Below, one piece after another: positions 35,160-36,432 of a stretch of 63,419 nucleotides of DNA (position 1 is the first letter of the stretch; each line of letters begins with the position of its first letter). The position numbers and the translations under genes were made by a program. The notes under the pieces were generated by a model. That model was not told the DNA's origin and ran no database searches. It saw nothing but the letters and a program-made list of their open reading frames with translations. Source of the DNA: a virus (taxonomy: Duplodnaviria > Heunggongvirae > Uroviricota > Caudoviricetes); the IMG/VR virus record IMGVR_UViG_2579778871_000002. One strand, given 5' to 3'.

Positions 35160-35461
35160 TGCAACGGAAACTAACTAAGCGTAATAAAAATTGGTTGAGC
35201 AACATGCTGAAAAAAGCCAATCGCAACCATATGTACCTCAACGACTGGTTATCAATTAAAGGTAATCTCAGTGATGCAAAAATGATCGACAGACATGTTG
35301 CGCGCTATGGTGTTTCACTTGTCTTAGAAAAGGCTGAATTAGTATTTTCGGAATATTATTCCATTCCGCAAATTAGCTCCAAAGGAAAAATATGTGGCTA
35401 TGTGCTCAAACATAAAAGCAAGCTGGATGAGCTTTTAGTCAGGGAAAAGGAGACACAATGA
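35159..35461 (+). CDS. small protein downstream of ban
   Basis: 100-aa ORF, start overlaps ban stop. Confidence 0.45.
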   Translation: MQRKLTKRNKNWLSNMLKKANRNHMYLNDWLSIKGNLSDAKMIDRHVARYGVSLVLEKAELVFSEYYSIPQISSKGKICGYVLKHKSKLDELLVREKETQ

Positions 35462-36432
35462 ACATCCTGATCATTGGGCGAAAATTTGAAGCTATCAGTG
35501 ATGTGAAAACATATACGGAAATGTGGGCTTACAACCTGGCCTGCGCCTTTAGTGAGGCTGGGGTAACATTGCAATACCATCGTCCATATTCCCCCGGCGT
35601 CGAAAGCCCGGAGGATTATGTTGAAGCTGTGTTAACCGCTGCGACTTCGTGTTCTGCGAAAGCCATTTTAGCGCCAGGATTGCGGTATTTTACTACGGTG
35701 CCCAGGGAAATAGGCGTGCATCTGCGTCGTCGATTCACTGGATGGGTAGCCCAGGTATACGACGGTTCTATGCTGGATTCGGCACCAGTCGATATTACTT
35801 TTACTGTCCGCGATGATACCTGGCGGTACCTGGATAATCCCGGTCGGTTAGAGCGTCATAATCGCTTTAACAAACATGTTGGATGGGCAGCGAATCAGGA
35901 GCTGTTCCACCTGGAAACCAAAACAGACGATGTTCTGCGTATTTTTGTAGACCACGCTGCATTTGATGTTAGTGGGTTTGATCACTCCTTAAGTATCCTT
36001 ATGAACCTTCAGCGCCTGGCCGTTCCGTATGAGGCCAGAACGTTGACCGATGACGGATTGATTACCATTGATCCGGGGAATATATCGGTAACCCCATACA
36101 GACGGACGCCGGTACCAGCAACCGAATTTGCAGCTGAATTGCGTAAGAGTGACGTTTTTATCGTTACGCATCCCGAAAGCCTTGGATTAACTGTTCTTGA
36201 GGCGGCAATGTGTGGAGCGTTGATATTAACGCCGCCCGATTGCCTTCCGCCGGATCGCCTGGAGTTGGTGAACCATATGGTTATCAAGTCGCGGATTGAT
36301 TGGGATGAGGTTATTGCTCGCGTTGATCGCGTGAAAAATGCTGAAAAGGTCCAGTGTCACACCTGGTCGGCAATTGCGGAAAAGATGCTTGAGACGTTTG
36401 TCACGCAGAAACCATCGCGCGGTAACGGATAA
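35458..36432 (+). CDS. GT-B fold (GT4-like) glycosyltransferase candidate
   Basis: 324 aa; HPESLGLTVLEAAMCGALILTPP resembles the recalled GT1/GT4 C-terminal E-x7-E motif (EGFGLxxLEAMACGxPVV). Confidence 0.5.
   Translation: MNILIIGRKFEAISDVKTYTEMWAYNLACAFSEAGVTLQYHRPYSPGVESPEDYVEAVLTAATSCSAKAILAPGLRYFTTVPREIGVHLRRRFTGWVAQVYDGSMLDSAPVDITFTVRDDTWRYLDNPGRLERHNRFNKHVGWAANQELFHLETKTDDVLRIFVDHAAFDVSGFDHSLSILMNLQRLAVPYEARTLTDDGLITIDPGNISVTPYRRTPVPATEFAAELRKSDVFIVTHPESLGLTVLEAAMCGALILTPPDCLPPDRLELVNHMVIKSRIDWDEVIARVDRVKNAEKVQCHTWSAIAEKMLETFVTQKPSRGNG

Follow-up and report, generated by a model that had tools for sequence, protein, structure and literature searches.

The stretch of DNA considered here, referred to below as the window, is the 63,419-nucleotide (nt) IMG/VR virus record IMGVR_UViG_2579778871_000002 (Caudoviricetes), and the gene in question, dbn, occupies positions 35458–36432 of its + strand, downstream of the replicative-helicase gene ban and convergent with the baseplate gene 5. 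The open reading frame (ORF) is intact, starts with an ATG preceded at 5 nt by an AAGGAG Shine–Dalgarno sequence (35447–35452, +), and encodes 324 amino acids (aa). This ORF is dbn, and the window is a P1-type phage-plasmid: in megablast comparisons the window shares 95.6–97.7% nt identity from the dbn ATG onward with P1, P7, RCS47, SJ46, and other Punavirus records; the P1 Dbn (P0001) and the window protein are 96% identical in aa over their full length; and the latter matches phrog_2518, the orthologous group of P1 dbn and P7 glt, at an E-value of 3.6e-231. The synteny is that of P1, the sole difference being an inserted gene, orf100, between ban and dbn. A preliminary description made from the sequence had placed a 324-aa sugar-transferase gene at these positions, between the helicase and the baseplate genes; the ORF, its placement, and the sugar-transferase call all stand, but its identity with the annotated P1 dbn and P7 glt had gone unrecognised, and the comparison with P1-family genomes that the description had proposed places the same gene at the same position in P1, P7, RCS47, and SJ46.

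As an annotated gene dbn is therefore not new, and the label of putative glycosyltransferase is two decades old: the P1 record lists dbn ("downstream of ban") as "function unknown, possible glycosyltransferase" (YP_006544, P1_gp078), the P7 record lists the same gene as glt, a "putative glycosyltransferase," and the RefSeq name, including that in RCS47, is "glycosyltransferase family 4 protein." The annotated lengths differ, the P1 product having 332 aa—i.e., 8 N-terminal residues more than the window allele—and the P7 product being a truncated version of 287 aa, whereas the window allele has 324 aa counted from a conserved methionine (MNIL...). Since the family alignments begin at this MNIL/MKIL methionine, the 324-aa form represents the conserved core. 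The ban–dbn segment was found in 472 PLSDB plasmids, mainly from E. coli and Salmonella.

The preliminary description had also mentioned three other sugar-transferase-like genes at 42–45 kb. These genes are real and correspond to pmgO, pmgP, and pmgQ, which lie together with ppp as follows:

42367–43029, + strand: pmgO, encoding a putative cytidine-monophosphate (CMP)-ulosonic-acid transferase resembling GT42, MptE, and WaaZ enzymes (phrog_4603, hhalign, and PDB matches)
42927–43553, + strand: pmgP, a paralog of pmgO, whose homologs stand directly upstream of the Dbn homologs in the contigs L015 and L112
43535–44227, + strand: ppp, encoding a lambda-type Ser/Thr phosphatase (Metallophos, Pfam 1e-15; P1 annotation)
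44224–44925, + strand: pmgQ, encoding a GT8-like glycosyltransferase of GT-A fold with an invariant DXD motif (D79-L80-D81)

In P1-type genomes these genes are split from dbn, which ends the ban operon, while pmgO-pmgP-ppp-pmgQ lies beyond the baseplate operon, at a distance of approximately 6 kb. In a P2-like phage contig (L015, with GPO scaffold, terminase, portal, and GPA genes) PmgO, PmgP, Dbn, and PmgQ homologs are contiguous and overlapping in that order (phmmer E-values of 1e-45, 2e-59, 6e-90 with 46% identity, and 2e-52, respectively), and that cassette has the orientation of the portal gene and starts at the stop codon of the latter. In the phage-like contig L112 the order is PmgP-Dbn-PmgQ-PmgO, again with overlapping ORFs. 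The contig L113 encodes a 522-aa fusion (P0228, 4304–5872) of a PmgO-like domain (E 1e-24) with a Dbn-like domain (E 9e-33); downstream of it come the genes for a DXD protein, a PmgQ homolog (3.6e-43), and an FkbM-type methyltransferase. In a 95-kb Citrobacter plasmid (L111) pmgO-pmgP-pmgQ are contiguous, with dbn 5 kb downstream on the same strand. A Dbn homolog stands directly beside a PmgQ homolog in L003/4, L005/6/105, L007/8, L009/10, L015/16, L106, L107, and L112, and one gene away from it in L014 and L113; among the contexts examined, the PmgQ homolog is directly downstream of the Dbn homolog in seven non-P1 phage contexts. Beyond L015, L112, and L113, each non-P1 phage locus with a Dbn homolog has a PmgQ homolog adjacent to it or separated from it by a single gene. 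On large environmental phage contigs (96–281 kb, carrying terminase, RecA/UvsY-like, and helicase genes) one or two PmgQ homologs invariably come after the Dbn homolog, either at once or with a single gene in between, and the clusters in question also contain sugar-nucleotide genes, a pyruvyl-transferase, and methyltransferases.

The adjacency of Dbn and PmgQ in independent phage lineages, the contiguity of all four genes in L015 and L112, and the fusion of PmgO to Dbn in P0228 lead us to propose that Dbn belongs, with three other enzymes, to a conserved phage module of glycan assembly, a proposal that taken as a whole we consider the best explanation and to which we assign a probability of roughly 65%; the action of the four enzymes on one common glycan is putative. 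The distributed glycosylation capacity at which the preliminary description had hinted gains strength from the contiguous cassettes in unrelated phages and from the PmgO–Dbn fusion. To treat dbn, pmgO, pmgP, and pmgQ as a single module seems not to have been stated before, nor does the pairing of Dbn-family genes with WaaZ-like genes in capsule loci described below.

With respect to the partner proteins, PHROGs labels the family of PmgO (phrog_4603) "alpha-2,3-sialyltransferase"; PmgO aligns with WaaZ-like proteins over 171 columns (hhalign Prob 96.5, E 7.5e-10) and with its paralog PmgP (Prob 96.1, E 3e-9), and a joint PmgO/PmgP profile matches, among the GT42 structures of the PDB, a lipooligosaccharide (LOS) alpha-2,3-sialyltransferase (9c08, E 2.7e-5) and Cst-II (5e-5), and also MptE. 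Although Pfam gives no match for PmgQ, its family comprises at least 133 clusters in which the DXD motif is invariant, and its AlphaFold2 model, with a predicted local distance difference test (pLDDT) of 95.2, has a GT-A fold whose Foldseek matches are the Skp1 alpha-galactosyltransferase, glycogenin, GlyE, and LgtC at E-values of 1e-8 to 1e-7; among the waa proteins of E. coli K-12 the PmgQ hidden Markov model (HMM) picks out WaaJ and WaaO. PmgO and PmgP would thus probably use a CMP-activated ulosonic acid, for example the CMP-activated 3-deoxy-D-manno-oct-2-ulosonic acid (CMP-Kdo) of the host, and PmgQ would probably be an alpha-hexosyltransferase, the donor sugars in both instances being conjectural. 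The phosphatase gene ppp fills the slot between pmgP and pmgQ where the Dbn homologs sit in the contiguous cassettes, is absent from that slot in the Citrobacter plasmid, and seems to have been inserted there at a later stage.

A few further observations concern these gene clusters. The ORFs of pmgO and pmgP overlap by 103 nt (42927–43029) in the window and in P1, and by 4 nt in L015, so that the annotated start of pmgP may lie too far upstream. Upstream of both, pmgM (41625–42203) has a VRR-NUC nuclease-domain match (E 3e-4) just below threshold, and RefSeq annotates VRR-NUC in RCS47; the name "putative morphogenetic" is thus probably misleading for this gene too. On the large phage contigs L003 (5190–11153), L005 (5136–11130), L007, L009, and L014 a conserved glycan cluster adjoins the RecA/UvsY-like genes; that cluster includes a fusion of a CTP-transferase with a mannose-6-phosphate-isomerase-type cupin, a polysaccharide pyruvyl-transferase, weak GT8/GT47 matches, and methyltransferases, along with a Dbn homolog, one or two PmgQ homologs, and a third conserved family of approximately 230 aa that matches nothing in Pfam, NCBIfam, or PHROG.

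As to Dbn itself, the AlphaFold2 model built from an alignment of 56 sequences (pLDDT 94.9, predicted template-modelling score 0.90) consists of two domains of alternating strands and helices; both are Rossmann-like (beta/alpha/beta) and face a cleft, and the C-terminal helix crosses back, which amounts to the GT-B fold that the preliminary description had claimed. The structural neighbours of the model are all GT-B proteins, the top scorers being retaining and mostly of GT4 type: sucrose-phosphate synthase (score 19.2), BshA (19.1), GlgM (18.4), PimA (18.3), glycogen synthase (18.2), PimB' (18.1), WaaB (16.3), and WaaG (15.1), with the nucleic-acid enzymes T4 alpha-glucosyltransferase and phage HY126 glycosyltransferase at 15.6 and 15.4; a Foldseek search agrees, returning MshA at an E-value of 1e-9. 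The GT4 enzymes among these proteins (MshA, BshA, PimA/PimB', sucrose-phosphate synthase, GlgM, WaaG, WaaB) are only 9–14% identical to Dbn and have 350–440 aa as opposed to 324, and their Gly-rich N-terminal loop is not evident in Dbn. Neither a transmembrane segment nor a signal peptide was found in Dbn, and none of PmgO, PmgP, PmgQ, and Dbn has a hydrophobic segment at the transmembrane threshold. As modelled, Dbn is a soluble two-domain GT-B protein whose nearest structural relatives are retaining, nucleotide-sugar-dependent transferases of GT4 type.

Two stretches of the C-terminal domain stand out:

35947–35982, + strand: invariant D165-H166...D175, immediately following the opening strand (residues 160–164 in the model) of the C-terminal domain
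36169–36228, + strand: the motif HPESLGLTVLEAAMCGALIL (residues 238–257), containing the EX7E pair E240 (36175–36177) and E248 (36199–36201)

The EX7E stretch reads E240-S-L-G-L-T-V-L-E248, and it is the sole part of the protein that matches Pfam Glycos_transf_1 and the GT4 sequences of the PDB (aligned with 8xsg, MshA). Since both Glu residues are invariant within the family (56 sequences), the motif is not coincidental. Fourteen residues in all are invariant in that alignment, namely D102, W143, A144, D165, H166, D175, F234, T237, H238, E240, S241, G243, E248, and G253. In the mechanism that we propose a nucleoside-diphosphate sugar would be bound in the C-terminal Rossmann domain, its ribose being contacted by E248 and its sugar moiety by E240; the cleft under the N-terminal domain would take up the acceptor, and the transfer, being of the retaining kind, would produce an alpha-linkage. 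The GT4-like C-terminal motif noted in the preliminary description is conserved, then, as EX7E, whereas formal GT4 membership does not follow, the Pfam score being below the gathering cut-off. Because that threshold was missed and the phosphate-binding signature appears to differ, we use the term "GT4-like" for what is probably the working mode of Dbn and not for a certified member of the family.

A TagF-like phosphotransferase (GT-B fold, catalytic His, CDP-glycerol as donor) was considered for the invariant H166 and H238 and for the CTP-transferase genes of the large phages; this candidate is not favoured, in that no TagF-type structure was among the top 50–60 neighbours listed per search and the EX7E motif is retained. 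Several Dbn-family proteins carry additional domains: besides the N-terminal PmgO-like domain of P0228, there are tandem Dbn domains in P0266, a C-terminal alpha/beta-hydrolase-like domain in P0281 (cf. L014, where an Asp2-like esterase gene precedes that of the Dbn homolog), and a recurrent C-terminal domain of some 200 aa shared by P0296, P0304, P0315, and P0322.

The two halves of the module belong to different transcription units of the window, whose features are these:

30795–30822, no strand assigned: divalent C1 operator Oban/Op72ab (perfect and 2-mismatch consensus matches; P1 annotation)
33789–35159, + strand: ban, DnaB-type replicative helicase, upstream of dbn in the same operon
34522–34549 and 34906–34938, + strand: predicted promoters P2dbn and P1dbn, inside ban (P1 annotation; sequences identical to P1)
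35159–35461, + strand: orf100, 100 aa (phrog_12809, E 3e-46), inserted between ban and dbn
36453–36479, no strand assigned: 11-bp bidirectional intrinsic terminator hairpin, in the 46-nt spacer between dbn and gene 5
36479–37111, - strand: gene 5, baseplate hub/spike, convergent with dbn (weak Phage_base_V match; P1 annotation "baseplate")
41270–41288 and 41303–41319, no strand assigned: late promoter LPpmgL and C1 operator Op82, upstream of pmgL-pmgQ (P1 annotation)
42210–42226, no strand assigned: C1 operator Op83 (P1 annotation)

The operator at 30795–30822 heads a unit that comprises tRNA genes, an SPFH gene, ban, orf100, and dbn and ends at the terminator. The start codon of orf100 overlaps the stop codon of ban (TAATG) and its stop codon overlaps the dbn start (ATGA), overlaps that suggest translational coupling. 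Of 81 P1-like loci, 80 on IMG/VR contigs and 1 on a bacterial genome contig, 14 have this insertion, which all 18 GenBank phage records matching dbn lack; the remaining 67 loci have the P1 junction, with an upstream ATG that overlaps the ban stop and gives rise to the annotated 332-aa Dbn. Downstream, the convergence with the baseplate gene and the bidirectional terminator that the preliminary description had reported are both borne out by the spacer and by the stability of the predicted hairpin (-17.6 kcal/mol, z -4.7, on the + strand; -18.1 kcal/mol, z -2.8, on the - strand), which is able to terminate in both directions because an A-run precedes it and a T-run comes after it, and which a simple terminator scan had missed because the T-run lies partly within the stem. 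The baseplate/tail block that parts dbn from pmgO-Q extends over 36479–40843 (genes 5, 6, 24, 7, 25, and 26), with gene 5 transcribed last.

The sequences of LPpmgL and of Op82/Op83 are conserved in the window with 0–1 mismatch, and P2dbn was also picked up by a scan of the window. The 17-bp consensus of the C1 operator, with up to 3 mismatches allowed, has 12 matches in the window against 0.34 expected by chance, and a thirteenth, more diverged site is identical to the Op83 of P1; the sites, at 11407, 13072, 27273, 30795–30822, 41303, 42210, 44927/44976, 47068, 62815, 63279, and 63362, together map the immunity-controlled promoters of this phage-plasmid. Since both units carry C1 operators, both halves of the module are expected to be on after induction or infection and not in the lysogen. 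Two side observations concern the first unit: the orf100 product is basic (pI 9.9); and the SPFH/Band-7 gene (32579–33406, +), whose product has a lipoprotein signal (…LCLTGC), sits between a tRNA-Asn/Thr pair and a tRNA with the anticodon CAT, at the place where P1 has plp, upl, and tciA/B/C, in what amounts to a cargo swap within the C1-controlled ban operon.

The gene is real and under purifying selection, and is more than a chance ORF: the 324-codon frame is kept intact in 83 of 84 P1-like loci, the ratio of nonsynonymous to synonymous polymorphism (pN/pS) is 0.12 over 56 distinct alleles, and full-length homologs at 28–58% identity form 74 clusters at 90% identity. When a Dbn profile was searched against 1.84 billion representative proteins, 424 clusters at 50% identity were obtained at E ≤ 1e-3, of which 191 at E ≤ 1e-30. 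The nucleotide scans were less productive: a scan of IMG/VR with the alignment of the Dbn family was dominated by P1-like contigs 96–98% identical, a degenerate DNA pattern for a distant Dbn clade gave three further family members only, and a scan of one genome per species gave 3 loci, two of them family members, one of these two being just a 209-bp fragment, so that the family is rare among representative genomes. Plasmid records numbered 471 for dbn and 792 for pmgO-Q, the latter count being inflated by ppp-like sequences; such counts are no test of co-loss.

As for the phenotype, in the searchable literature we found no functional study of Dbn, but only essentiality and transcript data. By CRISPR interference dbn and its partner genes are non-essential (PMC10695390), and an in-frame deletion of dbn plated normally and had no antirestriction defect (PMC9024508); according to the same source none of Dbn, PmgO, PmgP, and PmgQ is a virion component, and their deletions are without plating defect. 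The dbn transcript was reported to be increased at 20 min in a delta-hfq host. The module is an accessory one: dispensable on K-12, and yet with a dbn that is under purifying selection in nature.

What the module might glycosylate is a separate and less certain matter. Our first choice, held tentatively and at somewhat less than even odds, is a Kdo-bearing envelope glycolipid, the core of the lipopolysaccharide (LPS). The nearest non-phage homologs of Dbn (full-length identity of 34–42%, higher than for the homologs of the large phages) are encoded in three capsule loci of the ATP-binding-cassette-transporter (kps) type, in each of which the gene is directly downstream of an MptE/WaaZ-like gene, just as dbn is paired with pmgO and pmgP; one of those partners matches TIGR04437 WaaZ_KDO_III with 46 bits, and since one locus also carries the CMP-Kdo supply genes kdsA, kdsB, and kpsF, a Kdo-containing glycan is indicated there. 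The capsule loci differ from the P1 module in having an export machinery (KpsM/T, KpsC/S, and KpsD-like), P1 having no genes for export or polymerisation, and a PmgQ-type enzyme is found in none of them. The families responsible for the synthesis of LPS and LOS cores are GT4, GT8, and GT42/WaaZ, and we know of no CMP-ulosonic acid other than CMP-Kdo in E. coli K-12. The LPS core is the structure to which both P1 and P2 adsorb, the evidence for P1 being that galU mutants are reported to be resistant (Franklin 1969). The P2-like cassette (L015) adjoins a KAP NTPase gene, in a region that in P2-like phages harbours competition or defence cargo. Should the LPS core be the acceptor, its remodelling in infected cells would mask the receptors from superinfecting or progeny phage. 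A broader version, which we consider unlikely, would have P1, P2-like phages, and many uncultured phages share a hitherto unrecognised four-enzyme lytic pathway (two GT42/WaaZ-like transferases, the GT4-like Dbn, and the GT8-like PmgQ) that draws on host CMP-Kdo and uridine-diphosphate sugars and adds a branch to the LPS core, i.e., to the receptor of P1 and P2, masking the receptors on the infected cell and on its debris against superinfecting or progeny phage.

Several points weigh against our reading of Dbn and of its module. The score of Dbn against Pfam Glycos_transf_1 (PF00534), the profile that the preliminary description had named as a check, is 23.9 bits, below the gathering cut-off of 26.4, and the match is limited to residues 221–307 against profile positions 83–169, the last half of the domain; a search of NCBIfam with Dbn gave nothing significant, and a search of PDB sequences with the family profile returned only the EX7E stretch of 8xsg, at an E-value of 0.003. 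The likeness in sequence to canonical GT4 enzymes is thus restricted to some 40 residues. The hhalign comparison of the Dbn family with WaaG and WaaB of E. coli K-12 gave no significant alignment, with the result that the structural check for donor-binding residues failed as a residue-by-residue mapping; and the search of the 1.84 billion proteins stopped at the 424 clusters and did not reach the mainstream GT4 enzymes. Moreover, the site that follows strand 160–164 of the C-terminal domain, which we take to carry in GT4 enzymes a G-R...K signature binding the donor diphosphate, appears in Dbn to be replaced by D-H...D, as mapped by sequence and secondary structure and not by superposition; donor binding may accordingly differ, or a metal be involved, and the nearly invariant R216 and R267 could substitute for the phosphate-binding basic residues. 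The location of the module, furthermore, varies among phages—L113 has it in a structural module, L015 behind the portal gene, L112 in an early region, and the large phages next to RecA/UvsY—and for that reason points out no single acceptor. Finally, an expression confined to the lytic cycle leaves limited time for remodelling the LPS of the outer membrane, and the activities of Dbn and its partners are predictions from sequence and model.

Our second choice, which we regard as rather unlikely, is that the four enzymes build an O-linked oligosaccharide on a structural protein (of the capsid, tail, baseplate, or fibre) in the cytoplasm before assembly, so as to shield or stabilise the particle. 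Such a role would fit the L113 contig, where the PmgO–Dbn fusion, the DXD glycosyltransferase, the PmgQ homolog, and the FkbM-type methyltransferase lie within the head–tail block and where a 630-aa repeat protein beside the cluster is a plausible acceptor. That protein (1643–3535 of L113, Logan SRR24200879_895740), encoded two genes upstream of the glycosyltransferase cluster, consists of approximately 25 tandem repeats rich in Ser, Thr, and Tyr (consensus SPSLYSDADTFYTQTVT). Virion glycosylation would also be in keeping with the continuation of the terminase–portal operon by the L015 cassette, with the position of the four P1 genes on either side of the baseplate/tail operon and the late promoter of pmgL-pmgQ, and with the methyl- and pyruvyl-transferases of the large-phage clusters, which are typical glycan caps; moreover, GT8 and GT4 enzymes among the fold matches (GlyE, GtfA, GtfC) glycosylate proteins in the cytoplasm, as do the MptE-like Maf enzymes. 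Against it, no P1 virion protein has been reported to be glycosylated, and none of the four proteins is a virion component or gives a plating defect when deleted, although laboratory growth could well do without a glycan shield; the nearest non-phage homologs, furthermore, lie in polysaccharide (capsule) and not in protein-glycosylation loci, and to our knowledge Kdo is not a protein-linked sugar. In mycobacteriophages, for which virion-glycosylation operons were reportedly described by Freeman and colleagues in 2023, and in the capsid/fibril clusters of giant viruses, sets of soluble glycosyltransferases, accompanied in some cases by methyltransferases, are likewise encoded close to structural genes and are not needed for growth; the P1 module differs in having two GT42/WaaZ-like enzymes.

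Dbn might alternatively act alone, unrelated to PmgO, PmgP, and PmgQ, as a lysogenic-conversion enzyme expressed in the lysogen from the promoters inside ban and adding one sugar to the O-antigen or the core. Phage-plasmids often carry conversion genes, the sigma-70 promoters P1dbn and P2dbn predicted inside ban are conserved, and dbn is apart from pmgO-Q in all P1-like genomes; but those promoters are predictions only, the operon is headed by a C1 operator, and in unrelated phages Dbn homologs adjoin or are fused with PmgQ, PmgO, or PmgP homologs, so that we consider a stand-alone role improbable. The seroconverting prophages (gtrABC, O-antigen acetylases and glucosylases) are comparable in being temperate-phage accessory genes that alter surface glycans and adsorption. 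The gtr systems, nevertheless, comprise a flippase, a GT2 bactoprenol glucosyltransferase, and a periplasmic GT-C enzyme, the latter two membrane enzymes that work with lipid carriers, and are expressed in the lysogen, whereas Dbn lacks both transmembrane segments and partners of that kind and, like PmgO, PmgP, and PmgQ, would be a soluble Leloir-type enzyme under C1 repression. Seroconversion of the gtrABC type was rejected, there being neither membrane GT-C or GT2 genes nor flippase genes nearby, and no transmembrane segment in any of the four proteins.

Still more doubtful is a non-catalytic Dbn that would serve as a scaffold or chaperone for other transferases, in the manner of GtfB, Asp1, and Gap1 in the glycosylation of serine-rich-repeat proteins: the invariance of the EX7E Glu pair and of T-H-P-E-S-x-G over 28–58% identity would be hard to explain without catalysis or donor binding, and the best structural matches are catalytic GT4 enzymes. 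That Dbn glycosylates phage DNA or RNA to counter restriction, like the T4 alpha-glucosyltransferase or the enzymes of phages with arabinosylated 5-hydroxycytosine, is highly improbable, in that the structural neighbours of that kind score below the GT4 enzymes acting on small molecules, lipids, and polysaccharides, the T4 and HY126 enzymes need hydroxymethyl- or hydroxycytosine DNA and neither such a pathway nor any thymidylate-synthase-like hydroxylase or hydroxymethylase was seen beside any Dbn homolog examined, the partners resemble LOS and polysaccharide enzymes, antirestriction is unaffected when dbn is deleted, and the DNA of P1 is of the ordinary kind, cleavable by restriction enzymes, and guarded by the Dar proteins and by methylation.

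The weight of these findings lies in the module hypothesis and in the unusual GT-B subfamily rather than in the ORF itself, the Dbn family constituting a sequence-isolated GT-B branch with an unusual D-H...D signature. P1 is among the phages most used in genetics, and about a third of its genes are without function; four of those described as non-essential and of unknown function appear to form one glycan-building unit that extends from P1- and P2-like to large environmental phages. If the shared lytic pathway described above were real, it would in P1 have escaped notice behind the labels "dbn" and "putative morphogenetic" (pmg). If the module in fact remodels the LPS or glycosylates the virion, that activity would explain its upkeep under purifying selection in hundreds of natural phage-plasmids of E. 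coli and Salmonella, and would be relevant to host range, to superinfection exclusion, and to the immune recognition of therapeutic phages.

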